From Akkermansia muciniphila (lineage in GTDB: Bacteria; Verrucomicrobiota; Verrucomicrobiia; Limisphaerales; BJHT01): 64,000 nucleotides of DNA. Shown one piece after another: positions 4,457-41,932 of this stretch. The first letter of the stretch is position 1; every line of letters starts with the position of its first letter. A model generated the notes under the pieces. The model was not told the origin of the DNA. It saw only the letters and a program-made list of their open reading frames with translations, and did not search any database. The DNA is taken from assembly GCA_945861535.1 (NCBI GenBank), contig CAMAUZ010000013.1:37944-101943 (forward strand), in the 5' to 3' direction. The position numbers and the translations under genes are program-made.

Positions 4457-6961
4457 ATGAAGAACCTCACCGCCGCCTTCAGTTGTCTTGCCGCCGTGAT
4501 TTTCGGATCGGCCCGACTCCCCGCGCAGACGCAGAGCGCCTTCCGCATTGCGCCGGCGGCGGAGCAGCTTCTCGGCACCCACTGCTCCTCCTGCCACGGC
4601 CCCGACAGCCAGAAAGGGGATGTGCGCTTTGACACGCTGGGCGCGCTGCCGCTCGCGGAACGGCTCGCTTTGCTGAACCGCATGCAGGAGCAAACCTTCA
4701 TCGGGCAGATGCCGCCGAAGAGCCGGAAGTCGCAGCCGACGTCGGCGGAGCGGCAGGCGTTGCTGGAGTGGATGGGCGGCGAGCTGCGCGTCCACAACGC
4801 CTCGACGCTGGAGGACAAGCTGCGCCTCCCGGCCTACGGGAACTATGTGGATCATGACCGGCTGTTCAGCGGCGAAATCGCGGATGCGCCCTTCACGCCG
4901 GCGCGGCGCTGGCTCGTAAGCCCGCAGATTTTTTCCCAACGGGCGAGCGATATTTTTGGTCCGCCGGGGCATGGTCGCCCGGCGAGCCTTTACGGAGTGA
5001 CGATTCCCTTCGTGCTGCCCGAGGCGTCCGGCGTGCGGTATTATGACAACGAATCGCTCGATGGCGGCGCGCTACTGGTCATGCTCGCGAACGCGGACTG
5101 GATTTCGCAGAAGCAGGTGCTCGGTGCGCGCGTGAAAGCCGGCGAGTTGAAGCCCGAGGATTTGCCGAACAGGCAGGACCGCTGGGTGCCGAAAAATTAT
5201 CCGGCGGCGTTCGATGCGATTGTGCTGAAAAAGTCCGCGCCCACGGACGCGGAAATCACCGAGGCGGTGCGCGCGCAATTTGCCAGTGTGCTGCAGCGCA
5301 AACCCGGCGAAGCGGAATTGGTGAAGTATGCCAAGCTGACGCGCGACGCCATCGCGATTGGCGGCAACACGGAAGGTTTGCGGCAGACGTTGCTGACGGT
5401 GCTGCTGGAGTCGGAGTTTCTCTACCGCTTGGAATTTGGTGCGGGGCCCGCAGACCGCTTTGGCCGAAAGATGCTCGCGCCCCGCGAAGGAGCGTATGCG
5501 CTGTCCTACGCGCTCGGCGACCGCGGTCCGGATGCGAAGCTGCTGCAGGCCGTCGAGCAGGGGCGGCTCGCCACGCGCGAGGACTACCAGCGCGAGGTGC
5601 TGCGACTCCTCGACGACAAGACCTACTTCGCCGCCGAGATTGACCCCAACATGGGCGGCAAAGTCGTCCGCACCGTCGTCAGCCACCCGCGCATCAACCG
5701 TTTCTTCCGCGAATTTTTCGGCTACCCGATGGCCACCCGCGTTTTCAAAGACCCCGAGCGCGGCCTCGGCATCTACCAAAACCCGGACCGCGGCACCACC
5801 GGCACGCCTGGCTTCCTCGTCAACGAGGCCGACCGCCTCGTGGAGGCGATTCTCCAGCAAGACAAGGATGTCTTCGCCACGCTACTCACGACTGACCGCT
5901 ACATCGTCTATTACGACCGAACGCCCGAGGCGGGCCGCGCGATTATCGCCGAGTGGCGGAAAGTGTGGGACGCCCTCAAAAACAAACCGTGGAAAACCGA
6001 ACCCGAAAAAGTCATCGCCGAAAACAAAGCCGTGTTTGCCGGTCTGAAACACTTCCGCCTGCCCGAGGGGCAGCACCAGAGACGCGAGTTCGTCTGGCAC
6101 ATGTGGTTCTTCAACGACTACTTCGACAAGGGCCTCACGCCGTTTACCACCATCTCCACCGCCCACGGCTACTACCTCAACCACTCGCCCTTCTATAACC
6201 TGCCGCCGACGCCGCTGCGGGGACGTTATACCCCCTTGGAAAATCGGAACTTCAAAGGCTTGGACCAAGCGACATTCTGGGATTACCCGCTGGAGCAGCC
6301 CTTCAAAATCGCCAACCGCAAAGGCATCCTCACGCATCCCGCGTGGCTCATCGCCCATTCGCTGAACACGGAAACCGACCCCGTCCGCCGGGGCCGATGG
6401 ATTCGCGAAAAGCTTCTCGCCGGACGCGTGCCCGACGTGCCCATCACGGTGGACGCCAAGGTTCCCGAGGACCACCACAAGACTCTTCGCGAGCGTCTCG
6501 AAAAAATCACCTCCGACCAGCAGTGCATCAAGTGCCACCAATACATGAACCCGCTCGGACTGCCCTTCGAGCAGTTCGACGACTTTGGCCGCTTCCGCGC
6601 GCAGGAGGCACTGGAACACGCCGAAAACATCGTCGGCAAGACGCCCGGCCCGAAGACCGACTTCCCGATTTACAAAACGCTGCCCGTGAACCCGCGCGGA
6701 GCACTCGACAGCACCGGAGCCGCCGCGCTCGACGGCGAGGTGAAGGACGCCTTCGACATGATTGACCGCATCGCAAAATCTCCGCGCGTCCGCCAGTCTT
6801 TCATCCGCCATGCGTTCCGCTTTTTCATGGGGCGAAATGAAATGCTCTCCGATTCGCGGACACTAATAGAAGCCGACAAAGCCTATCTCCAAAGCGGCGG
6901 CAGCTTCCGCGCCGTCGTTGTTTCGCTGCTCACTTCCGACTCGTTTCTCTACCGCAAATAA
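4457..6961 (+). CDS. DUF1592/DUF1588-family protein with N-terminal planctomycete-type cytochrome c motif (pair 1)
   Basis: Signal peptide MKNLTAAFSCLAAVIFGSARLPA. N-terminal CSSCHGPDSQKGDVRFD followed by GQMPPKSRKSQP. C-terminal HPAWLIAHS...DPVRRGRWIREKLL and a second CIKCHQYMNPLGLPFEQFDDFGRFR motif. Confidence 0.8.
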   Translation: MKNLTAAFSCLAAVIFGSARLPAQTQSAFRIAPAAEQLLGTHCSSCHGPDSQKGDVRFDTLGALPLAERLALLNRMQEQTFIGQMPPKSRKSQPTSAERQALLEWMGGELRVHNASTLEDKLRLPAYGNYVDHDRLFSGEIADAPFTPARRWLVSPQIFSQRASDIFGPPGHGRPASLYGVTIPFVLPEASGVRYYDNESLDGGALLVMLANADWISQKQVLGARVKAGELKPEDLPNRQDRWVPKNYPAAFDAIVLKKSAPTDAEITEAVRAQFASVLQRKPGEAELVKYAKLTRDAIAIGGNTEGLRQTLLTVLLESEFLYRLEFGAGPADRFGRKMLAPREGAYALSYALGDRGPDAKLLQAVEQGRLATREDYQREVLRLLDDKTYFAAEIDPNMGGKVVRTVVSHPRINRFFREFFGYPMATRVFKDPERGLGIYQNPDRGTTGTPGFLVNEADRLVEAILQQDKDVFATLLTTDRYIVYYDRTPEAGRAIIAEWRKVWDALKNKPWKTEPEKVIAENKAVFAGLKHFRLPEGQHQRREFVWHMWFFNDYFDKGLTPFTTISTAHGYYLNHSPFYNLPPTPLRGRYTPLENRNFKGLDQATFWDYPLEQPFKIANRKGILTHPAWLIAHSLNTETDPVRRGRWIREKLLAGRVPDVPITVDAKVPEDHHKTLRERLEKITSDQQCIKCHQYMNPLGLPFEQFDDFGRFRAQEALEHAENIVGKTPGPKTDFPIYKTLPVNPRGALDSTGAAALDGEVKDAFDMIDRIAKSPRVRQSFIRHAFRFFMGRNEMLSDSRTLIEADKAYLQSGGSFRAVVVSLLTSDSFLYRK

Positions 6962-25228: not shown

Positions 25229-25250
25229 TTCAACCCACGAAATCTCACAT

Positions 25251-25323
25251 TTTTTACCGCACATCTTTTTGCCGGCCGCCCTCCGTCCCGGTGATAGCCG
25301 GCAAAAAGATGTGTGGTAAAAGA
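25251..25323. repeat. Palindromic element copy 1 (inside-out arm order: TTTTTACCGCACATCTTTTTGCCGGC - 20 nt - GCCGGCAAAAAGATGTGTGGTAAAAGA)
   Basis: The arms are reverse complements with 1 mismatch. Lies in the 111-nt spacer between the DUF1552 and DUF1592 genes. Confidence 0.85.
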
Positions 25324-25339
25324 TAACTGAAAAATACCC

Positions 25340-27808: not shown

Positions 27809-27828
27809 ATGAACAGGAGACAGGCAGC

Positions 27829-27875
27829 AGGAGACAGGAGACAGCCTGTCCACTGCCTCCTTTCTCCTGTCTCCT
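27829..27875 (+). other. Perfect 13-bp inverted repeat (AGGAGACAGGAGA / TCTCCTGTCTCCT, 21-nt loop) in intergenic spacer; possible terminator or regulatory hairpin
   Basis: Verified base by base. Embedded in CAGGAGA heptamer repeats (27814, 27828, 27835). No downstream T-tract. Confidence 0.4.
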
Positions 27876-29335: not shown

Positions 29336-30652
29336 ATGCCCGCATCCAATCTTCCGTCCTATTCGTCCACCCGCCGTTTTTTCCTGCGAGCCACGGGAGT
29401 GAGCCTTGCCCTTCCGCTGCTCGAATCTCTGGGCGCGCGCGTCTTCGCTCAGAACTCCGCCGTCGGCACTTTGCCGGGGAAGGCGGCGGGCGCGGGGCGT
29501 CCCAAGCGGATGGTGTGCATCGGCAACTTGCTCGGCTTTTATCCTCAGGCGTTTTTCCCGGCGAGAACGGGAGCGGACTACGATCTGCCTGAGTCCATCG
29601 AAGCGCTGAAGCCGCATCAGAAGGACTTCACGCTTTTCTCCGGGCTCGACCACGGCGTGAAGGGCGGGCACTTCGCGATGAGTTCCTTCCTCAGCGGCGT
29701 GCGCACCGCGGATGCCAAGGGCATGCCCGAGGGCAACATCACCGTGGACCAGCGGGCGGCGGAAACGATGGGTGCTGCCACGAGGTTTCCTTCGCTCGCC
29801 CTTGGATCCGAGAGCGGCATTCATGGCGGCTGCCTCATGTCGTGGACACGCAGCGGCACGCGGGTGCCGCCGATCAGCACGCCGCGCGAGCTGTTCCGGA
29901 AACTGTTTGTCTCCGATGGTGCCGCCGACCTCGCAGCGTCGCTGGATCGCCTCGATATGAAAGGTTCGATCCTTGACGCGGTCCAGGGCGATGCAAAAAC
30001 CCTCGAACGCCGTCTGGGCCAGCGGGACAAGGAGAAGCTGGACGAGTATTTCACCTCTGTCCGAGATGTGGAAAAGCAGATCGAGCTGCGCCGCAAGTGG
30101 GCCGGCGTGCCCAAGCCTGATCCGAGAATGCCGGAGCCAGCGAACAAGGATTTTGTATCCGACCTGCCGGTGATGTATGACTTGATCGCGCTCGCCCTGC
30201 AGACTGATTCCACCCGCATCGCCACTCTGGAGATTGGCGGAGATTTCGAGGCTTCGGCCTTCGATTTGAAGGCCGGTTATCACAGCCTCTCGCACCACGG
30301 ACAGCGTGAGGAAGCGATCAAGGGCCTCATCAAGATGGAACGCTATCAGATCGAGCAGTTCGCGCGGTTCATCGCCAGGCTCAAATCCATCGAGGACGGC
30401 GCGGGCACGCTGCTGGATCACTCGATGGTTCTCTTCGGCAGCGGCATGGGCAACGCCAACTCGCACACGAACAACAACCTGCCGATCGTCCTGGCCGGCG
30501 GCGGTTTCAAGCACGGCGAGCACCGGACGTATCCGGCGAAGGGGCTCGGCCGCCAGCCCTTGTGCAATCTCTATCTGACCATGCTCCATCGCTTCGGCGC
30601 GGAGGTGAAAGCGTTTGGCACCAGCACCGGCACACTCACCGGCCTCGCATGA
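29336..30652 (+). CDS. DUF1552 domain protein with twin-arginine signal (pair 5)
   Basis: STRRFFLRATGVSLALPLLES Tat motif. LQTDSTRIATLEI, GYHSLSHHGQ and GSGMGNANSHTNNNLPIVLAGGG blocks. Close paralog of the 23969 gene. Confidence 0.8.
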   Translation: MPASNLPSYSSTRRFFLRATGVSLALPLLESLGARVFAQNSAVGTLPGKAAGAGRPKRMVCIGNLLGFYPQAFFPARTGADYDLPESIEALKPHQKDFTLFSGLDHGVKGGHFAMSSFLSGVRTADAKGMPEGNITVDQRAAETMGAATRFPSLALGSESGIHGGCLMSWTRSGTRVPPISTPRELFRKLFVSDGAADLAASLDRLDMKGSILDAVQGDAKTLERRLGQRDKEKLDEYFTSVRDVEKQIELRRKWAGVPKPDPRMPEPANKDFVSDLPVMYDLIALALQTDSTRIATLEIGGDFEASAFDLKAGYHSLSHHGQREEAIKGLIKMERYQIEQFARFIARLKSIEDGAGTLLDHSMVLFGSGMGNANSHTNNNLPIVLAGGGFKHGEHRTYPAKGLGRQPLCNLYLTMLHRFGAEVKAFGTSTGTLTGLA

Positions 30653-30731
30653 GCCGGCAAAAAGATGGGCGGTAAAAGATAGGAGGATTTTGCAAGCGAT
30701 TCTATTTTTCACCGCCCATCTTTTTGCCGGC
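30653..30731. repeat. Palindromic element copy 2
   Basis: GCCGGCAAAAAGATGGGCGGTAAAAGAT - loop - TTTTTCACCGCCCATCTTTTTGCCGGC. The stem has 21 perfect bp. Starts at the base after the DUF1552 TGA. The internal ATG frame hits TAG after 5 codons. Confidence 0.9.
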
Positions 30732-30743
30732 TAAAGACCACCC

Positions 30744-31529
30744 ATGCCAATCCACCGCACCATCGAGACCGTCCGCCCGACTCAATCCGAGTTCGGTCAA
30801 ATCGCCTTTGACGTGATGAAGTGCGTGTATGAGATCCACAATGAATTCGGCCGCTTCTTTGATGAAGCGGTTTACAAGCGCGAACTCGCCGCGAGGATGC
30901 CTGGCGTGGAACTGGAGGTCCCTGTCACCGTCTCCCATAAAACGTTCTCGAAGCTCTACAAGCTCGACGTTCTGGCGCACCGGCGAGGCGTTTTCGAGTT
31001 CAAGGCTGCCGAGACTATTGTTCCCCGTCATCGCGGCCAGACCATCAACTCCCTGCTCCTCTTTGACCTCCCGCACGGCAAACTCATCAACGTCCGGCCC
31101 GAGCGAGTCAACGATGAGTTCGTGAACTGCCACCTGCGGCTGGAGGCGTTGCGAAATCCATCCGTGGACACAGCCAGTTTCGTTTCCACCGTTGCCGGAG
31201 CAGCCTTCTTTCATGACCACCTGCTCACCTTGATCCGCGACTGGGGTTCCGGCCTTGAGACCGGGCTTTACGAAGAAGGACTCTCTCACTTTCTTGGTGG
31301 CGATGAGCGGGCTCTACAGCCTGTGCCGGTGATGGGATCCAAAGGACATCTGCACGATCAAAAGATGCGTCTGTTGGCACCGGATGTCGCCTTCAAGCTC
31401 ACCGCCTTTCCCGATCGGCTGGAGGCCTTTGAGACGCATGCCCGACGCCTACTTCAGCATACTTCGCTTAAAGCCATTCATTGGGCCAACATCACTCATA
31501 GCCATGTTACCTTCACGACCATCCACTAA
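30744..31529 (+). CDS. GxxExxY-like / PD-(D/E)XK-fold protein with an extra C-terminal region (function unknown)
   Basis: FGRFFDEAVYKRELAARMPGVELEVPVTVSHK...YKLDVLAHRRGVFEFKAAE...GKLINV follows the GxxExxY-family layout (acidic LDV plus ExK). The identification is by eye only. Confidence 0.45.
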   Translation: MPIHRTIETVRPTQSEFGQIAFDVMKCVYEIHNEFGRFFDEAVYKRELAARMPGVELEVPVTVSHKTFSKLYKLDVLAHRRGVFEFKAAETIVPRHRGQTINSLLLFDLPHGKLINVRPERVNDEFVNCHLRLEALRNPSVDTASFVSTVAGAAFFHDHLLTLIRDWGSGLETGLYEEGLSHFLGGDERALQPVPVMGSKGHLHDQKMRLLAPDVAFKLTAFPDRLEAFETHARRLLQHTSLKAIHWANITHSHVTFTTIH

Positions 31530-31536
31530 CTTTTTC

Positions 31537-31610
31537 GCCGGCAAAAAGATGTGCGGTAAAAAATGGGGACTCCTGTTTTTCCTATTTTTCACCGCCCATC
31601 TTTTTGCCGG
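31537..31610. repeat. Palindromic element copy 3 (overlaps the start codon and signal peptide of the downstream gene)
   Basis: GCCGGCAAAAAGATGTGCGGTAAAAAATGGGGA - loop - TTTTTCACCGCCCATCTTTTTGCCGG. Starts 8 nt after the upstream TAA. Confidence 0.9.
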
Positions 31611-34035
31611 ACCTCCGGAGATCCGACGTTTCCTCACCACCTATTGCAACGACTGCCACGGCGCGGAAAAACAAAAGGGCGATCGGCGCTTTGATAAGCT
31701 GCTGCTGCCCGCCACCAAGGTGGACACGCTGATCGATCTCAAAGACATCCTCGATCAAATCAACCTCGGCGAAATGCCGCCGAAAAAATCGAAGCAACCG
31801 TCGCAGCTGGAGCAAAAGGTCTTTATCGAGCAGGCGACTCTCGCGCTCACCGAAGGTCGTGAGAGTCTCGCCAGCACCGATGGCAGCAGCGTGTTGCGTC
31901 GTCTCAACCGCCGCGAATACATCAACACCATCGGCGACCTGTTCGCGATGAATATGGCGGCCTTCGATCCCACCACGAAGTTTCCGCGCGACCAGTCCGC
32001 CGAGCACATGGAGAATCTCGGCGATGTGCTCCAGACCTCGGGCTATCTGTTGGAGCAATATCTCGATGCGGCGGACGCCATCGTTAAGAAGGCGTTCGCA
32101 GTTCAAAAGCAGCCGGATGAGCGCGTTTGGAACTTCCGCGAGAACTTCAAGCCGCAGCAGGAATTAAGCGGCCCGCATCGCCGCCTCCAAAACGCATTTA
32201 TCGGCCTTTACGAATGCATGGCCACCCCAAACCACGAGGGCGGCTACGGCTTCATCAGCGACTTTCAGCAAGGAGTGCCGGTGGACGGAATCTACGAGAT
32301 TCGCGTCCTTGCCCAGGCCATGAACCGGCAGCATCCGTATGATCCGAAAATCTTCGGGACCGACTCACGCGAGCCTTTCCGCCTCGGCTTGGTGCCCGGC
32401 GATGCGAAAGCCGGTCCGCTGTATCAGCCGCAGCCGCTCCAGCCCATGCTCGCCGAGCAGGCTCTGCAAGATGGCGAACCCGAATGGCACACGATGAAGG
32501 TCTGGCTGGATGCCGGACATACACCGCGATTTGTTTTCCTCAATGGCCCGAAAAGCGCACGCAGTTCCTGGGCCCGAATCGTGGAATACCACAAGGACAA
32601 ATGGCCGGCGACCACATCGAAGCGGGACCGCAAGAACGGCCTCGGCATCGTCGAAAATCGCATTCTCAGCATCGTCGAAGGAAAAGTGCCGCACATTCGC
32701 ATCAGCGAGGTGCAGATTCGCGGACCCATCGTCGAGCAGTGGCCGCCCGCTCCCCAGCAGGCCGTTTTGGGAAAGACTGCCTTCGCTCCGGAGAAGATGC
32801 GCGAAGTCCTCCAATCCTTCGCCGACCGAGCTTATCGCCGTCCGGCCAGCCAGGCCGAAGTGGATCGACTCATGGCCGTCGCCAGGAAACGCACGAGCAC
32901 CGGCCGTTCGCCGCAGGAAGGTCTGAAGGACGCTCTCAAGGCAGCGCTCTGCTCGCCCGCCTTCATCTATCTCTCGCAGGATGCCGTGGAGCCAAAAAGT
33001 GACTCGAAAGCACGTCCCAAGCTCACCGCCTACGCGCTCGCCTCGCGGCTGTCCTATTTCCTCTGGTCAACCATGCCGGATGCGGAGTTGCTCCGGCTGG
33101 CGCACAGTCAGGAGCTAACCAAGCCAGCGGTGCTCATTGCACAGACGCGCCGCATGTTGGCCAGCCCGCGCTCCGAGGCCTTCGTGTCGGGCTTTCTCGA
33201 CAGTTGGCTGAACCTCCGCAGCCTCGGAGGCATGCCGCCGGATCGGAAGGATTTTGAAACGTATTACTCCAAGGGCCTGGAGCACGCCTTCAAGCAAGAG
33301 ACACGGCTTTTCATGCGCGACCTCATCGAGCGCGATGCCAGCATCGTAAACTTCCTCAACAGCGACTACGGCTTCGTCAATCAACCGCTCGCCACGCACT
33401 ACGGTCTCGGTGAACTCGGCGATCCGGCCAAGGCGCATGAGTTCCGCAAAGTCAGCTTCAAGACCGACAAGCGCGGCGGCCTGCTCGGCATGGGCTCCGT
33501 GCTCACCATCACCGCCAACGGCATCGAGACTTCGCCCGTCGTGCGTGGGGTCTATCTGCTGGAAAACATCCTCGGCACGCCGCCGCCGCCGCCGCCCGAT
33601 GACGTGCCTGCTATCGATCCCGATGTGCGCGGAGCCAAATCCATGCGCGAGTTGCTCAGCAAACATCGCGAATCGCCGAACTGCGCCGGCTGCCATCAAA
33701 AGATCGACCCACTCGGATTCGCGTTGGAGAACTTTGATCCCATCGGAGGCTGGCGGACGAGCTATGGCAAAACCCCGATCGACACCGCCGGAGAACTGCC
33801 CAGCGGCGATAAGTTCTCGGACGTCGCCGGCCTGAAGGGAATCCTCGTCAAACGCCAGGCCCTCTTCGCCCGGATGCTCACCGATCGCCTCCTCACCTAC
33901 GCTTGCGGTCGCCGCATCGGTGCGCTCGACGAGCCCACCGTGGCAAGAATCGTTGCCGAAATGCCGAGGCACAAACACGGCCTCCGCTCACTTCTCGAAG
34001 CCGTAGTGACGAGCGAACTGTTCCTCAGCCGTTGA
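31549..34035 (+). CDS. DUF1592/DUF1587/DUF1588/DUF1585-family cytochrome-c-motif protein (pair 5)
   Basis: ATG 31549 is the first in-frame start after the upstream gene. N-terminus MCGKKWGLLFFLFFTAHLFAG, then CNDCHGAEKQKGDRRFD, GEMPPKKSKQP, RRLNRREYINTIGDLF, LASRLSYFLWSTMPD, SPVVRGVYLLENILG, CAGCHQKIDPLGFALENFD. Confidence 0.85.
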   Translation: MCGKKWGLLFFLFFTAHLFAGPPEIRRFLTTYCNDCHGAEKQKGDRRFDKLLLPATKVDTLIDLKDILDQINLGEMPPKKSKQPSQLEQKVFIEQATLALTEGRESLASTDGSSVLRRLNRREYINTIGDLFAMNMAAFDPTTKFPRDQSAEHMENLGDVLQTSGYLLEQYLDAADAIVKKAFAVQKQPDERVWNFRENFKPQQELSGPHRRLQNAFIGLYECMATPNHEGGYGFISDFQQGVPVDGIYEIRVLAQAMNRQHPYDPKIFGTDSREPFRLGLVPGDAKAGPLYQPQPLQPMLAEQALQDGEPEWHTMKVWLDAGHTPRFVFLNGPKSARSSWARIVEYHKDKWPATTSKRDRKNGLGIVENRILSIVEGKVPHIRISEVQIRGPIVEQWPPAPQQAVLGKTAFAPEKMREVLQSFADRAYRRPASQAEVDRLMAVARKRTSTGRSPQEGLKDALKAALCSPAFIYLSQDAVEPKSDSKARPKLTAYALASRLSYFLWSTMPDAELLRLAHSQELTKPAVLIAQTRRMLASPRSEAFVSGFLDSWLNLRSLGGMPPDRKDFETYYSKGLEHAFKQETRLFMRDLIERDASIVNFLNSDYGFVNQPLATHYGLGELGDPAKAHEFRKVSFKTDKRGGLLGMGSVLTITANGIETSPVVRGVYLLENILGTPPPPPPDDVPAIDPDVRGAKSMRELLSKHRESPNCAGCHQKIDPLGFALENFDPIGGWRTSYGKTPIDTAGELPSGDKFSDVAGLKGILVKRQALFARMLTDRLLTYACGRRIGALDEPTVARIVAEMPRHKHGLRSLLEAVVTSELFLSR

Positions 34036-34086
34036 TTCCTTGACCCAACGAAAACGACACAATCCTTTATGAAGCCAACCTGCATA

Positions 34087-34160
34087 GCCGGCAAAAAGAT
34101 GGGCGGTAAAAAATGGGGACTTCTCTTCTCCTTATTTTTTACCGCCCATCTTTTTGCCGC
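34087..34160. repeat. Palindromic element copy 4 (overlaps the start and signal peptide of the sulfatase fragment)
   Basis: GCCGGCAAAAAGATGGGCGGTAAAAAATGGGGA - loop - TTTTTTACCGCCCATCTTTTTGCCGC. Confidence 0.9.
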
Positions 34161-34722
34161 TCCTCCCGCCGACAAAGCGCCGGGCAAACAATACAACGTG
34201 CTGTTCATCGCCGTCGACGACTTGAACGACTGGGTCGGGGCCTTCGGCGGCGCGCCCCAAAAGAAGTCGGCGACGCCCAAGCTGGATAAATTCGCGAAGA
34301 GCGGCTCGGTCGTTTTCCAGCAGGCGAATTGCGCGGGCCCGGTCTGTGGCCCGTCGCGCTCGGCTTTGCTGTCGGGCTTTATGCCGAATCGGTCGGGTGT
34401 TTACGGCAACGCTCATAACATGCGCAACTCCGCGCTCGTGCAGACCCACCTCACGCTGCCGGAGTATTTTTCGAAGCATGGCTACCGCACGCTCTCAAGC
34501 GGCAAGATTTTCCATAAACATGCCGGCGACGAGGGCCATTGGGCGTTTGACCAGTGGGTCGCCACTGAAGGCGGCAGCGGTTCGCAGGTTGATCCCCAGC
34601 GTCTGACCTCCCGGAGTCGCAACCTGATTGACGGCAAGCCCGCGCCATTTGCCCCGGCCAAGGGCGAGGGCAACGCCGACGGCGAAGGCGGGGGCACGGA
34701 ATTCTCCTGGGGACCGGCCTGA
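34099..34722 (+). pseudogene. Sulfatase, N-terminal half only (truncated)
   Basis: NVLFIAVDDLNDW and the CGPSRSALLSGF (CxPxR) signature are present. The ORF ends after about 207 codons, whereas the intact sulfatases here are about 450-540 aa. Alternative start ATG 34069. Confidence 0.7.
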
Positions 34723-34949
34723 AGTAGTCGCGGTGCGCTCAAGCATGAATCAGTCGCTGCAAATGGATTGCCCCGCCCCGAAATCGTGGCGCGTCTGGCT
34801 GCCGCCGCCGCCGAATGGAACCGCGGCCTCATCGCCCCCGCCTTCGGCAACAATCCTTTCGGCGGCCTCATCAACCGCACCATACTGGAGAAAAATTCGA
34901 CCCCTTGAAGCGCAATGAGGACTACCAGTCTTTCGCAACCACGCATCCA

Positions 34950-35501
34950 ATGAACCCACGCACCCTTCTTTTATCCATCGCTCTTTCAGCCAGCGCCGTC
35001 GCCGGTTTCGCGCAGGACTCCGCGGATGTCATCGTCTATGGCTCCACGCCCGGCGGGTTCTGCGCGGCCATCGCTGCGGCGCGCGAGGGGGCTTCGGTTA
35101 TTTTGCTGGAGCCGACGGAGCACGTCGGCGGGCTGAGCACGGGCGGGCTGAGCCACTGCGACTCGAATCAGATGCGGCGGGAGACTTTGATGGGACTCTT
35201 CGACGAGTGGCATCGGCGCGTGGTGAAGGACTACACGGACCGCGGGCTTGCAGCTCCCTACGATGCGGCGCTTAAGGACACCGCACGCTGGACGTTTGAG
35301 CCGCATGTGGCGATGCGCGTGACGACGGCGATGCTCAAGGAAGCGGGCGTGGTGGTGCGGACCGGGCGGTATTTGAAATCGGTCACGAAAGAAGGGCCGC
35401 GCATCACTTCGCTCACCGCGAAGGACGGCAAGTTCACGGCGAAAGTATTCGTGGACGGCTCCTACGAAGGCGACCTCATGGCTGCCGCTGGCGTGGACTG
35501 A
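34950..35501 (+). CDS. FAD-dependent oxidoreductase, N-terminal part; ends at an in-frame TGA
   Basis: Signal-like MNPRTLLLSIALSASAVAGFA. Dinucleotide-binding VIVYGSTPGGFCAAIAAAREG...LEPTEHVGGLSTGG. Confidence 0.7.
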   Translation: MNPRTLLLSIALSASAVAGFAQDSADVIVYGSTPGGFCAAIAAAREGASVILLEPTEHVGGLSTGGLSHCDSNQMRRETLMGLFDEWHRRVVKDYTDRGLAAPYDAALKDTARWTFEPHVAMRVTTAMLKEAGVVVRTGRYLKSVTKEGPRITSLTAKDGKFTAKVFVDGSYEGDLMAAAGVD

Positions 35502-35570
35502 ACGATTGGCCGCGAGGGGCGCGCCGAGTTCGGTGAATCCTACGCGGGGAAGCAGTATCCCAAAAAGAAA

Positions 35571-37022
35571 ATGGACATCAGCGGCTTCGATGACGCGGGC
35601 AAACTGCTGCCGCTCGTGACGACCAGCGACGCCGGGCCGGACGAAGCGGGCGACAAGAACATCATGACCTACAGCTTCCGGCTCTGCCTCACGCGAGACC
35701 CGGCCAAGATGGTTTCCATGCCCGCGCCGACGAACTACAACCCCGCCCGATTCGAGCTGGCGCGCCGCGCGCTCAAAGTCGGTGTCAAAGCGGGCTTCGA
35801 CCTCTACCCGTTGCCGGGCAACAAGCTCGACGGCAACAACTCCATTCACGGACAGGTTTCCCTCGGCCTTGTCGGTGCCGGCAACGACTGGCACAGCGCC
35901 GATGAAGCAGGCCGGCAGAAGATTTGGGAGGACCACAAACAATACACGCTTGAGTTCCTGCACTTCCTCCGCACCGACCCCGCCGTGGCGCCGAAAGTCC
36001 GTGGCGAGTTTGCCGGCCTCGGTCTTTGCCAAGACGAGTTTGCGGCGACCGCCCACTTTCCGCCTGCGCTCTATGTGCGCGAATCGCGGCGGATGAAGGG
36101 CCTGCATGTGATCTCGCAAAAGGACATCATTACCTCGCCGGAAAAGGCCGACCCCATCGCCGTCTCGTCGTTCCCGATTGATTCGCACGACTGCCAGCGC
36201 GTCGCGTTGAAAGACGGTGGCGTCATCAATGAGGGCACGATTTTTCCCGTGCGAGTCCCCGGCAGCAAAGTGGGCTACGCCTACCATGTGCCCTATCGCT
36301 CCGTGCTGCCGCAGGCCAGCCAATGCAACAACCTGCTCGTGCCCGTCGCGCTTTCCTCCACGCATGTCGCGATGTCATCGCTTCGGATCGAAGGCGCATG
36401 GATGGCCATCGGCCAGGGCGCGGGTGTCGCCGCGGCGCTGGCGGCGAAACAATCCGTCGCCGTGCAAGACCTGCCCTATCCCGTCCTGCGCCAGCGACTC
36501 CTCGCGCAAGGGCAAGTGCTCGACCTCCCCGCAGTTTCCAAACCAGCGGCGGCGAAGGAGGCTGACTTCATCCCCGTGAAGTCGCTCCCCGGCATCGTGC
36601 TCGACGACGCCGATGCGCAACTCGTCGGCGCATGGACGCAGTCCACGAACTTCAAACCACACATCGGCAGCGGCTACCGCGTCCACGGAGCCAAGGACGC
36701 CCGCGCCGACGGCACAGCCACCGCCACCTTCCGCGTCAAAGTGCCGACGTCCGGCGAATACCAGGTGCTGATGTCCTACTCCGCGCATGAAACCCGCGCC
36801 AAAAACGTGCCCGTCACCATCGTCAGCGGCACCCGCGAGACGAAGCTCACCGTGGACCAAACCAAGCCCATGCCCGCCGGTCAGCACTTTCAGCCCATCG
36901 GCACGGCGACGCTCACATCGGATGGCGAAACAACTCTTCGAATCCAAACCACCGACACCACCGGTTTCGTCATCCTCGACGCCGTGCAGTTGGTTTTGAG
37001 CCGGCAAAAAGATGGGCGGTAA
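35571..37022 (+). CDS. Continuation of the same FAD-dependent oxidoreductase (same frame; open from 35502)
   Basis: Frame identical to 34950..35501. Codons 35502-35570 read TIGREGRAEFGESYAGKQYPKKK without a stop. The last 7 codons and the TAA lie inside palindromic element copy 5. Confidence 0.7.
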   Translation: MDISGFDDAGKLLPLVTTSDAGPDEAGDKNIMTYSFRLCLTRDPAKMVSMPAPTNYNPARFELARRALKVGVKAGFDLYPLPGNKLDGNNSIHGQVSLGLVGAGNDWHSADEAGRQKIWEDHKQYTLEFLHFLRTDPAVAPKVRGEFAGLGLCQDEFAATAHFPPALYVRESRRMKGLHVISQKDIITSPEKADPIAVSSFPIDSHDCQRVALKDGGVINEGTIFPVRVPGSKVGYAYHVPYRSVLPQASQCNNLLVPVALSSTHVAMSSLRIEGAWMAIGQGAGVAAALAAKQSVAVQDLPYPVLRQRLLAQGQVLDLPAVSKPAAAKEADFIPVKSLPGIVLDDADAQLVGAWTQSTNFKPHIGSGYRVHGAKDARADGTATATFRVKVPTSGEYQVLMSYSAHETRAKNVPVTIVSGTRETKLTVDQTKPMPAGQHFQPIGTATLTSDGETTLRIQTTDTTGFVILDAVQLVLSRQKDGR

Positions 37023-37074
37023 AAAATGTGATGAAATGGATTCCCCATCTTTTACCGGCCATCTTTTTGCCGGC
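37000..37074. repeat. Palindromic element copy 5
   Basis: GCCGGCAAAAAGATGGGCGGTAAAAAATG - loop - TCCCCATCTTTTACCGGCCATCTTTTTGCCGGC. Contains the upstream gene's stop codon (37020-37022). Confidence 0.9.
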
Positions 37075-37096
37075 CTGTATGCCCAACATTACTCCT

Positions 37097-39691
37097 ATGA
37101 TCACACGCCTCACATTCCTCGGTTTGATTCTCGGTTTATCCTTCTCGTCCGCAGATGCTCAGAATGCCGCCGTCGGTTCGCCCCGGCTGGTTCTGGATGC
37201 GGACACGGGCATAACCATTCGCGAGGGCTTCGACGCTGAATTGCTCTACGAGGTGCCCAAGTCTCAGGGCTCGTGGGTGGCGATGGCGTTTGATCCGAAA
37301 GGCCGGCTCATCGTTTCCGATCAGGATGACAAGGGTGTGTTCCGCGTGACGCTGCCCACCGGGGGTGCCGGAATCAAAGTCGAGAGCCTGCCCGGATTTC
37401 CTTACGAGCCGGTGGACTGGGGGAGGCGCAAGGTCGGCGGTGCGTATGGCTTTCTCTACGCGTTCGATAGTCTCTACATGGCGAACATGCGGGGCTTTTA
37501 CCGCATCCGCGACACAGATGGGGACGACCAGTTTGACGAATTCACGCTGCTGAAGAAACTCGACATGGGCTACGAGCACTCGGCGCACTGCATCATCCAG
37601 ACGGCTGACGGCAAGGGGCTTTATCTGGTGAGCGGAAACTTCACCCGAGTGCCAAAAGGGACCGTTCCCTCGCAGCCGCCGGTATGGCAGGAGGACACGC
37701 TCATGCCCGTGATTCCCGACCCTTCGGGCCACGCCGTGGGACTCAAGCCTCCGGGCGGCTGGATTTGCCGCATTTCACCCGACGGCAGCGACTGGAGGAT
37801 GATTGCGTCCGGCTTCCGCAACTCGGTGGACATCGCGCTGAATCGCGAGGGCGAACTTTTCACTTACGATTCCGACATGGAGTTTGATGTTGGCGTCCCG
37901 TGGTATCGGCCCACGCGCATCAATCACGTCACCAGCGGCGCGGAGTTTGGCTGGAGGGCGAACTCGGGGGTGTGGCTGGACTATTTCGCCGACAGCCTCG
38001 GCTCGGTGCTCGACATCGGCCCCGGCTCCCCGACGGCCATCAGCTTCGGGCATCACTCGAAGTTTCCGGCGGAGTTTCAGGACAAGCTCTTCATCTGCGA
38101 CTGGACGTTCGGCACGATTTTCACCGTGGAGCTGCAGGAAAGCGGTTCGAGCTACACCGGCACGAAGTCGGAGTTTCTCCACGGCAGCCCGCTGAACATC
38201 GCGGCGATGCGCTTCGGGCCGGACGGTGCGATGTATTTCGTCACCGGCGGACGCACGACAGCCTCGCGGCTCTATCGAGTCCGCCACACAGGCGCGCCGA
38301 CGACGGGCGTGCCGAGGACACTGCTGGCCAACAGCGAACTGCGGGTGTTGCGGCATTCGTTGGAGAAATTCCATGCACGCGGCGAGAGCGCCGACGCCGT
38401 GGAAAAGGCATGGCCGCATCTCGCGCACGCTGACCGCAGCATTCGCTACGCAGCGCGCATCGCCATCGAGAACCAGGGCGTGGCGCTCTGGCAGGAAATG
38501 GTCTTCGCGGAGAAGAACCCGCGCGCGGCGATTTATGCCGCCATCGCGTTGACCCGCCATGGCGACAAATCCCTGTCCGGGCGGCTGATTGACAAGCTCG
38601 CCGAGGTGCCATTTGGCTCGCTTGCGCAAGAAGACCAGCTCGCGCTGCTCCGCGCCTACGCGCTGTGTTTTATGCGATTTGGCCTGCCCGCCGAGGATAA
38701 GACGGCGGCAGTCATCGCCAGGCTGGATGCTCATTTCCCGTCTAAGGATGACACGGTGAACGCCGAACTATGCCGTGTGCTGTCATCGCTCGATGCTCCC
38801 ACAGTGGCGCGGAAAACCATCGGGCTGATGAAAGCCACCCGCGTCGAGACAGTGGCCTACGACAAGGCCATGCTGGGCCGTCACGAGTATGGCGCGGCCA
38901 TTTTGAAGATGATGGCCAACACGCCCAACACGCGAAATATCCACTACGCGTATTTCCTGCGGCGCGTGCGAAGCGGGTGGACGCTCGAGGACCGCAAATA
39001 CTTCTTCGGCTGGCTGAACGAGGCGTTGGCCAAGGACGGCGGCAAGAGCTTTGCCGGATACATCCGGGCCATTCGCAAGGACGCCATCGCGCAACTGGAG
39101 ACCAAGGATGTCGAGCTGATGGCCGGGTTGCTGGAGGACTTTCCCGCTTTCGACCTTTCCAAACTCCCGAAGCCCAAAGGCCCGCCTGTCGCATGGACGG
39201 TGGAGACGGCGATGAACCTGTTTGAGCCGGAGCTTCGCGGCCGGGATTTCGCGAACGGGAAGAAGATGTTCGCCGCCGGATACTGCATCGCCTGTCATCG
39301 CGTCGGCGGCGAAGGCGGCCACTCTGGTCCTGACCTCGGCTCGCTGGGAAATCGCTTTTCCATCCGGGACATTCTCGTCGCCATCTGTGAACCCAGCGCC
39401 TCGGTCTCCGACCAATACCTCGCCAGCGTGGTGAAGCTCAAAGACGGCGACACGCTCAACGGCCGCCTCATTTTCAAGAACGACAAGGAAGTCGGCGTCG
39501 CCACGAATCCGTTTGATTTGAACCAGGTCACGAAAGCGCCGGCGGACCAGGTGGTCGGCATCGCTTCCTCGCAAGTTTCGATGATGCCATCGGAGCTGCT
39601 CTCAGGCATGAACCGCGATGAGCTGATGGACCTGATGGCCTATCTGCTCTCAGGCGGAAACTCGCAGCACAAGGCTTTCAAAAAGGAATGA
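37097..39691 (+). CDS. PVC-type heme-binding protein: putative membrane-bound dehydrogenase (beta-propeller) + HEAT-like repeats + C-terminal cytochrome c domain
   Basis: Signal peptide MITRLTFLGLILGLSFSSADA. C-terminal GYCIACHRVGGEGGHSGPDLGSLG heme c motif. Alternative starts are 37079 or 37028. Confidence 0.75.
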   Translation: MITRLTFLGLILGLSFSSADAQNAAVGSPRLVLDADTGITIREGFDAELLYEVPKSQGSWVAMAFDPKGRLIVSDQDDKGVFRVTLPTGGAGIKVESLPGFPYEPVDWGRRKVGGAYGFLYAFDSLYMANMRGFYRIRDTDGDDQFDEFTLLKKLDMGYEHSAHCIIQTADGKGLYLVSGNFTRVPKGTVPSQPPVWQEDTLMPVIPDPSGHAVGLKPPGGWICRISPDGSDWRMIASGFRNSVDIALNREGELFTYDSDMEFDVGVPWYRPTRINHVTSGAEFGWRANSGVWLDYFADSLGSVLDIGPGSPTAISFGHHSKFPAEFQDKLFICDWTFGTIFTVELQESGSSYTGTKSEFLHGSPLNIAAMRFGPDGAMYFVTGGRTTASRLYRVRHTGAPTTGVPRTLLANSELRVLRHSLEKFHARGESADAVEKAWPHLAHADRSIRYAARIAIENQGVALWQEMVFAEKNPRAAIYAAIALTRHGDKSLSGRLIDKLAEVPFGSLAQEDQLALLRAYALCFMRFGLPAEDKTAAVIARLDAHFPSKDDTVNAELCRVLSSLDAPTVARKTIGLMKATRVETVAYDKAMLGRHEYGAAILKMMANTPNTRNIHYAYFLRRVRSGWTLEDRKYFFGWLNEALAKDGGKSFAGYIRAIRKDAIAQLETKDVELMAGLLEDFPAFDLSKLPKPKGPPVAWTVETAMNLFEPELRGRDFANGKKMFAAGYCIACHRVGGEGGHSGPDLGSLGNRFSIRDILVAICEPSASVSDQYLASVVKLKDGDTLNGRLIFKNDKEVGVATNPFDLNQVTKAPADQVVGIASSQVSMMPSELLSGMNRDELMDLMAYLLSGGNSQHKAFKKE

Positions 39692-39887
39692 TCCCACGCA
39701 CCACATTCCTGGTAAGAATAGATCCGCTGGAGCGGAGCCAAAGCCAACGCCCACATCCGCACCCTCGCCCTCGAAAACCTGACGCTTGCGAGGTGTCCAC
39801 CAAACACAGGCAAGCGCCCGCGGATAACCCCTCCCAAAATCAATCATTCGTGTTCGACAAACCTCCGCGATTCAAAATCAATCCGCC

Positions 39888-41804
<1,917 letters not shown>

Positions 41805-41857
41805 AAATTTCTGAACGTAGCAAGATGACATGCTCACACACAAGGACCGGGGTTTGG

Positions 41858-41932
41858 GCCGGCAAAAAGATGGGCGGTAAAAGATGGGGACTGCTGTTCT
41901 TCCTGTTTTTCACCACACATCTTTTTGCCGGC
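41858..41932. repeat. Palindromic element copy 6 (overlaps the start and signal peptide of the downstream gene)
   Basis: GCCGGCAAAAAGATGGGCGGTAAAAGATGGGGA - loop - TTTTTCACCACACATCTTTTTGCCGGC. Confidence 0.9.

Follow-up and report, generated by a model that had tools for sequence, protein, structure and literature searches.

Within a 64,000-nucleotide (nt) stretch of contig CAMAUZ010000013.1 (GenBank assembly GCA_945861535.1, labelled Akkermansia muciniphila; positions 37,944 to 101,943 of the forward strand, hereafter the window), a dispersed palindromic element of about 75 nt is probably translated as the replacement Sec signal sequence of genes for exported proteins, as judged by sequence comparison with related genomes and metagenomes. 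The original prediction, made from the letters of this DNA, had assigned to the palindrome at 31537–31611 both the start codon and the entire signal peptide of a DUF1592-family gene. Its signal-peptide part is well supported by comparison, since element-free orthologs have ordinary signal peptides at exactly this place, frame and length are fixed, and decayed palindromes keep the peptide, whereas a start codon within the element is doubtful. What that prediction had missed is that the palindrome belongs to a dispersed repeat family associated with a PD-(D/E)XK nuclease-family gene. Below, L-numbers denote comparison loci from genomes and metagenomes, and P-numbers comparison proteins. The features of the window on which the argument relies are the following.

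25249–25324, forward strand: inside-out palindrome copy (order arm B, 20 nt, arm A), non-coding, upstream of the DUF1592 paralog at 25340
30652–30732, forward strand: left palindrome (IR-L), abutting the TGA of the DUF1552 gene (29336–30652), non-coding (ATG GGC GGT AAA AGA TAG)
30744–31529, forward strand: 261-aa PD-(D/E)XK nuclease-family gene, flanked by the palindromes at 30652 and 31537
31504–31506, forward strand: likely DUF1592 initiation codon, an ATG in the last nuclease codons (CAT GTT, His-Val), outside the stem
31537–31611, forward strand: right palindrome (IR-R), its in-frame translation (AGKK)MCGKKWGLLFFLFFTAHLFAG supplying n-, h- and c-regions to the DUF1592 signal peptide
31549–34035, forward strand: DUF1592-family gene (PSCyt1-PSD3-PSD5-PSD4-PSCyt3-PSD2 by Pfam), range as called from the arm ATG
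34087–34160, forward strand: solo palindrome fused in frame to a sulfatase fragment (arm ATG 34099, upstream in-frame ATG 34069, end of the open reading frame (ORF) 34722)
37000–37074, forward strand: solo palindrome, non-coding with respect to the gene that follows, which has a signal peptide of its own beginning at 37097
41858–41932, forward strand: solo palindrome fused in frame to the gene of a 524-aa exported protein (arm ATG 41870, upstream in-frame ATG 41825, gene end 43444)

The palindrome and the peptide it encodes

The element at 31537–31611 is an imperfect palindrome whose 30-nt arms (31538–31567 and 31581–31610) are 90% complementary and separated by a gap of 13 nt. Each arm is built of two direct sub-repeats (GGCAAAAAGATG, then GGCGGTAAAAGATG), and the outer ends of the element read GCCGGC. 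With two mismatches allowed, the outer 14-mer CCGGCAAAAAGATG has 13 matches in the window where shuffles lead one to expect 0.77, and 12 of the 13 are arms of six palindrome copies that span 17 kb. Five copies had been claimed originally; the one at 37000–37074 was overlooked, and the copy at 25249 is inside-out, so that its GCCGGC ends face the loop. Each of the six folds as RNA into a stem some 30 bp long, with energies of −43 to −53 kcal/mol (−49.9 kcal/mol for the inside-out copy and −53.2 kcal/mol for IR-L) and z-scores between −5.5 and −10.9. The non-coding copies do run into a stop after five codons, as had been stated (30653, AGA TAG; 25297, AGA TAA), and their loops differ from those of the coding copies.

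From the ATG at 31549 the frame reads MCGKKWGLLFFLFFTAHLFAG, then PPEIRRFLTTYCNDCHG, and the copies at 34099 and 41870 read MGGKKWGLLFSLFFTAHLFAA and MGGKRWGLLFFLFFTTHLFAG, respectively. The layout of the peptide follows that of the palindrome, with the A-rich arm giving a positive n-region (AGKK-M-G/C-GKKWG), the pyrimidine-rich loop giving LLFxLFF, and the T-rich arm giving TAHLFAG, that is, the rest of the h-region and an alanine at position −1; the Lys-rich arm A, hydrophobic loop plus arm B, and HLFA end of the original translations are thereby confirmed. Two residues that follow the arm ATG, K4 and K5 (or K, R), provide the positive charge. The h-region WGLLFFLFFTAHLFA has a 15-residue core whose hydrophobicity lies in the native range, and its best 10-residue Kyte–Doolittle mean (2.0–2.3) may be compared with 2.25 and 3.16 in two native ortholog signal peptides. 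Around the expected cleavage point, between HLFA and G, residue −1 is alanine and residue −3 leucine, which is allowed, if not typical. As a Sec signal sequence, the peptide would direct export and be cleaved.

Downstream of the element, the conserved N-terminus of the DUF1592 protein aligns, as had been proposed, with that of the paralog at 25340, which has a native signal peptide of its own (MHSSLTKPSLWLAVFLAACSISSA). In all three fused genes the stretch from the element to the conserved mature part is free of ATG, GTG and TTG codons in frame, and no other signal peptide follows the element. The DUF1592 gene is intact (828 aa, all six domains), and gene callers start its protein at the element ATG 31549 in a metagenome contig matching the window (GCA_947444175.1, CANEZI010000025.1). 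A CxxCH haem-binding domain, which needs export, lies 33 residues into this protein. The second fusion had also been taken for a coding copy; its peptide is indeed read in frame, but the gene behind it is a 207-aa sulfatase fragment. In L003 the same sulfatase fusion stays open from arm B to the limit of the compared locus, a distance of at least 394 codons. The 524-aa product of the third fused gene, named glycoside-hydrolase-like by one source, is full length when set against 120 orthologs. Further fusions involve a PSCyt1-PSCyt2-PSD1 protein (L014, a Prosthecobacter genome), a PATR-repeat protein (L005) and a second sulfatase (L083), and in L002 the element is fused in another frame to the n-region of a flavin adenine dinucleotide (FAD) oxidoreductase.

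Replacement of native signal peptides

Empty and filled sites can be compared directly, since related genomes carry the same gene order with and without the element. In L084, an 8.9-Mb genome, the order is DUF1552, 35 nt, DUF1592, sulfatase 1 and sulfatase 2, with neither palindrome nor nuclease gene, and each protein has a native signal peptide: MLRFSHLLIAALLATALTPAQAA for DUF1592, MRLRLSMISLSVFLTLATAHAA for sulfatase 1 and MKPMTNIPLRRSLRSLALSTLCFGLGSLQAA for sulfatase 2. The empty-site DUF1592 orthologs of L083 and L084 both begin with signal peptides of the form MLRFS...QAA. Locus L083, whose DUF1592 protein is 87% identical to that of the window, is intermediate: its DUF1552/DUF1592 junction is empty, and sulfatase 1 is joined in frame to a palindrome that follows DUF1592. 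The window and L003 have the element at both junctions. At the first, the segment from the base after the DUF1552 stop to about 7 codons before FLTTYC, with all of the native intergenic DNA, start codon and signal peptide, has been replaced by palindrome, nuclease gene and palindrome. At the second, sulfatase 1 is gone, and the same palindrome, with the same conserved 50-nt upstream spacer, is fused in frame to sulfatase 2. The fusion of this palindrome to sulfatase 1 in L083 (3358–3430), as against sulfatase 2 in the window (34087–34160), points to a deletion starting at the edge of the element. At the level of sequence, these loci show that the element has taken the place of native 5′ ends, and that one palindrome has become joined to different genes after loss of the intervening DNA.

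A similar picture emerges from the orthologs of the other fused genes. For the gene at 41870, native signal peptides ending in ...A.A(A)D directly before ELVVYPPVPGLA are found in 118 of the 120 best orthologs, whereas in the genome of the window ...HLFAG precedes ELVVYPPVPGLA. Among 119 DUF1592 orthologs (66–100% identical), 42 have an element-derived N-terminus, 70 a native one and seven an unclear one, and the element-derived ones show at least two junction types (GPPEVQRFL and GPSEFL). On a neighbour-joining tree of the mature parts of these 119 proteins, element-derived and native N-termini are interspersed, requiring 22 parsimony steps. This could reflect repeated events, recombination of 5′ ends or poor resolution of the tree.

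Constraint on the fused copies

From 29371 to 34715 the window is collinear with L003, the nucleotide identity being 81% and each of the three palindromes having its ortholog in place. Between the two, the ratio of non-synonymous to synonymous substitution rates (dN/dS) is 0.19 for DUF1592 (dS 0.72) and 0.18 for the sulfatase, as expected of genes under purifying selection. Within the 21 element codons there are 4 synonymous and 1 non-synonymous changes in the DUF1592 gene, and 4.5 and 6.5 in the sulfatase (the latter all conservative), without indels. In the non-coding IR-L and its L003 ortholog the arms are likewise conserved, and the loop has diverged in both sequence and length through indels.

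Ten open copies were compared more widely: nine are fusions, drawn from six sources and involving genes of four protein families, and one is unfused. All ten span exactly 20 codons from the arm ATG to GCC, so that the frame is fixed, whereas other members of the family span 55–73 nt. At the second position of loop codons 8–14, these copies, which are phylogenetically non-independent, have T in 62 of 70 cases and C in the other 8, with no purine at all; positions 1 and 3 hold 27 purines, which account for Ile, Val or Thr. The original prediction had counted six variable loop codons among the three window copies, five of them varying only synonymously, and had taken this as selection on the peptide; the counts are correct, but the bias is weak by itself, as the same peptide occurs in short, probably spurious read-through ORFs.

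The most telling evidence for constraint on the peptide is that some lineages in which the palindrome has been lost keep a hydrophobic N-terminus of the same length. In L090 arm A is mutated, the peptide reads MSGNAWGLLFSIFFTAHLFAS, and the fold has weakened to −20 kcal/mol; in L091 both arms have decayed, the nuclease gene is reduced to its tail, and the peptide MQGMKWGVLFSLFFATSLFAG is retained (−20 kcal/mol); and in L087, which holds an ortholog of the gene at 41870, the N-terminus reads ...FLLLFTTRLIAG directly before ELLVYPP (−18 kcal/mol) and is no longer matched by the element profile. The decayed palindromes thus fold at −18 to −20 kcal/mol, against −47 to −52 for the window copies and −15 to −32 for native starts. 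Loss of the hairpin in these older fusions fits an expression cost of the structure. That the window and L003 have kept it implies that the palindrome is under a separate constraint, or subject to gene conversion.

Site of translation initiation

The ATG at 31549 had been regarded as the only in-frame start after an upstream stop at 31529. This could not be upheld: the TAA at 31527–31529 is the stop of the upstream gene, in another frame, and the DUF1592 frame is open back to an ATG at 31384, with a further ATG at 31504. Codon 31549 is the sole in-frame ATG, GTG or TTG only if overlap with the upstream gene is ruled out. All three fused genes have in-frame ATGs 10–15 codons upstream and outside the stem (31504, 34069 and 41825), from which the n-regions would read MLPSRPSTNFFAGKKMCGKK, MKPTCIAGKKMGGKK and MTCSHTRTGVWAGKKMGGKR. 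The energy needed to open the mRNA from −15 to +15 is 32.6, 44.6 and 27.0 kcal/mol at the arm ATGs 31549, 34099 and 41870, respectively, 3.1, 2.6 and 8.7 kcal/mol at 31504, 34069 and 41825, and 3–14 kcal/mol at 12 native starts of the window. The difference between 27–45 kcal/mol in the arms and 2.6–8.7 kcal/mol upstream indicates that the start used is probably not the ATG of the palindrome. The upstream frame is also conserved and open in L003, L083, L014 and L090, with an equivalent of ATG 31504 in frame with the palindrome in L003, L014 and L090; the frame upstream of the sulfatase copy is open and contains ATGs in the window, L003 and L083. Five DUF1592 orthologs (P0040, P0053, P0058, P0061 and P0064) are called from MLPSR..., and P0138, from the genome of the window itself, is on record as starting at 41825.

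Initiation at the in-frame ATG just upstream of the stem is therefore the reading we would favour by a little over an even chance. Arm A would then form the tail of a longer n-region (...AGKKMGGKKWG). Translation from the arm A ATGs at 31549, 34099 and 41870, by which the element would supply the start codon as well, is possible, if rather doubtful. It is the choice of gene callers at 31549, no extension is called in several orthologs (MCGKKWG..., MSGNAWG...), the L089 start coincides with the second sub-repeat's ATG, and initiation could be co-transcriptional, taking place before arm B is made. Against these points stand the opening energies, far above those of the 12 native starts, the far more accessible in-frame ATG upstream in each of the three genes, and the open and conserved upstream frame elsewhere, together with the call of P0138 from 41825. 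Under either start, the h- and c-regions are encoded by the loop and arm B.

A nuclease-fold gene between palindromes

Between IR-L and IR-R lies the 261-aa gene, residues 20–122 of whose product match PF13366 (PDDEXK_3; 52.6 bits, cut-off 22) and TIGR04256 (GxxExxY; 52.5 bits, cut-off 35). We know of no function for the GxxExxY family. The C-terminal 136 aa had no Pfam match at E-values up to 10. Residues D75, E85 and K87 are invariant in eight homologs of the protein and may represent the catalytic D...(D/E)xK motif. Seven of the homologs are 77–84% identical to the window protein, and a marine one (L082) is 53% identical. Compared with L003, the gene has a dN/dS of 0.155 at a dS of 0.57, which indicates conservation under purifying selection. 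Searches of PDB by sequence and profile, and of PADLOC and PHROGs, gave no match to the protein, and its single-sequence AlphaFold2 model is uninformative (predicted local distance difference test, pLDDT, 33). The gene had no match among phage sequences and only distant matches, to short GxxExxY genes, among plasmids; the palindrome had none in either.

The association of palindrome and gene recurs well beyond the window. A scan for exact arms found the palindrome in 14 loci of diverse genomes of the Planctomycetes–Verrucomicrobia–Chlamydiae (PVC) group, and a relaxed scan extended this to 62 metagenome loci. With the element profile, pairs of copies about 0.9 kb apart enclose a homolog of the 261-aa gene in L003, L008/L074, L014, L047, L049, the marine locus L082, L089 and L090. 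The units stand in differing contexts, including glycolate-oxidase-like genes, DUF1501, pseudopilin-like genes and a polyketide-synthase-like ORF, and this recurrence in unrelated surroundings means that the palindrome is not private to one gene start. Internally deleted units, in which two palindromes enclose the tail of the nuclease gene, occur in L011 (2141–2344), P0003, P0004, P0007, P0012 and P0016. The palindrome represents a repeat family of PVC bacteria and metagenomes whose full form is palindrome, PD-(D/E)XK gene, palindrome, with the solo and deleted forms as derivatives.

Several observations accompany these units. The deleted ones carry a nuclease tail of the form GPSPEFLKTT..IHWA.ITH..TFTTIR followed by a stop, look like non-autonomous derivatives, and have in GPSPEFLKT a stretch resembling the first mature residues of element-fused DUF1592 proteins. 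A search for remnants of the nuclease tail upstream of the solo copies in the window found none above shuffled controls. A wider palindrome superfamily is present in soil, freshwater and marine metagenomes (L024, L042, L055, L061, L078, L082 and others), its arms made of two GGCAAAAAGAT-like sub-repeats of which the second differs, so that the two-sub-repeat design is kept; the TARA contig L082 has three palindrome copies around its nuclease gene, 53% identical to that of the window. In L008, a genome labelled Pirellulaceae (Planctomycetes), the 261-aa protein encoded at 5696–6481 is 82% identical to that encoded at 30744–31529 of the window, a level of identity with a verrucomicrobial contig that must stem from horizontal transfer or, failing that, from an error in binning.

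The 261-aa nuclease-fold protein is an obvious candidate for the enzyme that acts on the palindromes, in the form of a hairpin or cruciform. More tentatively, and with odds that we would put well below even, palindrome, PD-(D/E)XK gene and palindrome may constitute an undescribed mobile or self-maintaining PVC element, analogous to the REPtrons discussed below and driven by a nuclease fold. Its right end would be an outward frame, running from an ATG in the nuclease tail through the palindrome and encoding a ready-made Sec signal peptide, so that insertions and edge deletions at the 5′ ends of exported-protein genes, which abound in these bacteria, would be tolerated and the export signal would be portable.

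Origin of the fusions and alternative explanations

The fusions could have arisen in a few steps. A unit or solo palindrome, mobilised by the nuclease, would insert upstream of a gene; deletions from the right edge of the element, like those adjacent to insertion sequences, would then remove the native start and signal peptide; and selection would retain those products that place the mature part in the TAHLFA frame and keep export. A number of findings weigh against the view that the element serves as a signal sequence, or against this route to it. No target-site duplications were found at five window copies, and no other direct traces of transposition were seen. One of the three fused genes of the window is truncated, the synteny of the 34099 sulfatase with its intact ortholog in L003 ending at 34715. 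A stem of about 30 bp, at −44 to −52 kcal/mol, in the first 20–35 codons should hamper expression and could be a target of RNase III. The arms are conserved at synonymous sites as well (dS 0.38–0.43 in element codons against 0.73–0.91 in the rest), so part of the conservation of the peptide is DNA-level conservation of the palindrome. The peptide also occurs in short, probably meaningless read-through ORFs, and in L035, L046 and L066 an open copy heads only an unfused 28-aa ORF. When 1.84 billion representative proteins were searched exhaustively with a profile, the peptide turned up in only 15, most of them short ORFs reading through a copy into the nuclease tail; recruitment as a signal peptide is accordingly rare and lineage-restricted. 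It looks as if the open orientation is a property of an element sub-family, with use as a signal peptide restricted to one lineage. A non-exhaustive doubled-peptide search of a word-indexed database, which missed the window's own proteins, returned 6 short proteins, and a frame count over all copies (long ORFs 15, 11 and 12 in the three frames) does not discriminate, owing to long antisense ORFs in GC-rich DNA and to genes with a start of their own downstream.

The palindromes might, alternatively, be ordinary extragenic repeats in 5′ untranslated regions, extended into reading frames by annotation, with the real proteins starting downstream. Repeats of the repetitive extragenic palindromic (REP) type at predicted N-termini have often been judged extragenic, with translation beginning further on (PMC3733652), the 37000 copy behaves in this way, its frame being open through arm B into a gene that has its own signal peptide from 37097, and start codons within the stem are thermodynamically occluded. 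Such an artefact nevertheless seems very unlikely, given that none of the three genes offers an ATG, GTG or TTG between element and mature part, that the native signal peptide of element-free orthologs is physically absent, that the haem-binding CxxCH domain and the sulfatase need export, and that frame and length are conserved across species. It is also hardly credible that the insertions killed the genes and left the downstream ORFs as pseudogenes, with the open frame through the element as a leftover. This would account for the 207-aa sulfatase fragment and for the neighbouring FAD oxidoreductase, split into two ORFs, and the hairpin should indeed block initiation; but the DUF1592 gene is intact and evolves at a dN/dS of 0.19 (dS 0.72, against L003), the fusion has been kept in 42 ortholog clusters, the identically fused L003 sulfatase has the open stretch of 394 or more codons given above, and the 41870 protein is full length against its 120 orthologs.

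A more serious objection, though still an unlikely one, is that the peptide is conserved only through the palindrome as DNA or RNA, be it selfish, protein-binding or a regulatory hairpin, and that its translation is tolerated, the exported proteins using it as an uncleaved anchor or by accident. The arms are near-identical between the window and L003 even though some 46% of synonymous sites in the flanking genes differ, non-coding copies keep their arms, the same peptide appears in spurious short ORFs, and the open L035 copy is fused to nothing. What speaks for the peptide itself is the hydrophobic, signal-like N-terminus of the same length in lineages that have lost the palindrome, the absence of purines at the second position of loop codons, and the drift in sequence and length of the loops of non-coding orthologous copies. 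Translation of the element as a replacement signal sequence remains, on balance, the interpretation that we prefer.

Genomic setting of the copies

The copies lie in a co-directional run of genes for exported proteins (DUF1592/PSD and DUF1552 pairs, PhoD-like proteins, sulfatases and PVC-type haem proteins) of a kind typical of Verrucomicrobia and Planctomycetes. The five complete copies (30652–41932) are all co-oriented with these genes, and the element profile scores the plus strand higher (e.g., 83 against 67 bits at 31537); several pairs of the inner stem are G-U and can form only in the plus-strand transcript. The copy at 37000–37074 supplies the last 7 or so codons and the TAA (37020–37022) of the upstream ORF 35571–37022, and its open frame towards the downstream gene runs from ATG 37031 via arm B (HLLPAIFLPAC). 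Signs of gene decay are seen between two palindromes, from 34099 to 37022, where the FAD-dependent oxidoreductase, which has a Golvesin C-terminal domain, is split into ORFs 34815–35501 and 35571–37022. An unrelated imperfect inverted repeat of AGGAGACAG units occupies 27815–27875, after the end of the DUF1592 paralog (stop 27808) and ahead of the PhoD-like gene (start 27882). Rfam gave no match in the window at gathering score, and an E-value threshold returned only sub-threshold noise from microRNA-precursor hairpins. Between 25000 and 42500, a terminator scan stayed at chance level and a sigma-70 promoter scan, which is not informative for this phylum, found none.

Relation to known repeats and implications

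Several known classes of repeat share features with the element. Closest in outcome are the Rickettsia palindromic elements (RPE; PMC3733652), dispersed palindromic repeats found in functional coding sequence, where the peptide is tolerated or used. RPE form internal segments in unrelated proteins, whereas the window element has replaced, repeatedly and only in exported proteins, an N-terminal Sec signal module; the sequences are unrelated, the host phylum differs, and RPE are not known to have an associated, flanked nuclease gene.

In its arrangement the element resembles REP sequences, the bacterial interspersed mosaic elements (BIME) formed from them, and REP-associated tyrosine transposases (RAYT), combined in REPtrons, in which short intergenic palindromes between co-directional genes flank a single enzyme gene. 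As in REPtrons, solo copies outnumber the gene, no target-site duplications are seen, and copies can overlap ORF ends and supply stops (here at 37020). A REP is defined as a 20–40 bp palindrome tagged with GTAG or CGTC, and REPs at predicted N-termini have been noted and judged probably extragenic (PMC3733652). The window element is about 75 nt long, with two sub-repeats per arm and no such tag, and its copy number per genome appears low; its flanked gene is of the PD-(D/E)XK type (PF13366, with a C-terminal part that matches no family) and not an HUH/Y1 transposase. Membership of the REP/RAYT system was ruled out on these grounds, namely a flanked gene matching only PF13366, no Y1 transposase and no GTAG or CGTC tag.

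Miniature inverted-repeat transposable elements (MITEs), Correia elements and insertion sequences (IS) with outward-reading signals are likewise small mobile repeats that, near a gene start, alter expression of the neighbour, and the edge deletion by which sulfatase 1 was lost resembles IS-adjacent deletions. These usually donate promoters, terminators or RNA processing sites, whereas the window element donates a protein-coding export signal. As to MITE features in particular, internally deleted units exist, duplications are missing at the five window copies, and the enzyme of the unit is no known transposase. Integron attC sites and cassettes also present imperfect palindromes with variable loops between co-directional genes. 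A cassette array was rejected: the ORFs scanned, which comprise most of those of at least 150 aa in the 64 kb, contain no domain of an integrase or recombinase, each interval has between one and three genes whose chromosomal synteny is conserved, and the palindromes are located within reading frames. A literature search found nothing on palindrome-flanked GxxExxY/PDDEXK_3 genes or on repeat-encoded signal peptides in bacteria, which is no proof of novelty. Exaptation of repeats into coding sequence is known, and the present case may have a new kind of nuclease-associated repeat element behind it.

If correct, nature would here provide a clear example in which a non-coding repeat has contributed a complete functional module of a protein, an export signal, in place of a promoter or an inert insert, and has done so repeatedly and in several protein families, the symmetry of A-run and T-run in the palindrome mapping onto the polarity of charge and hydrophobicity in a signal peptide. 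The repeat-flanked PD-(D/E)XK gene, under purifying selection, offers a testable candidate for an enzyme of such palindromes, and the combination of an occluded start, upstream starts and loss of the hairpin in older fusions makes a tractable system for the conflict between RNA structure and translation. The finding bears on the origin of new N-termini, on the tolerance of repeats inside genes, and on the annotation of gene starts in PVC genomes.

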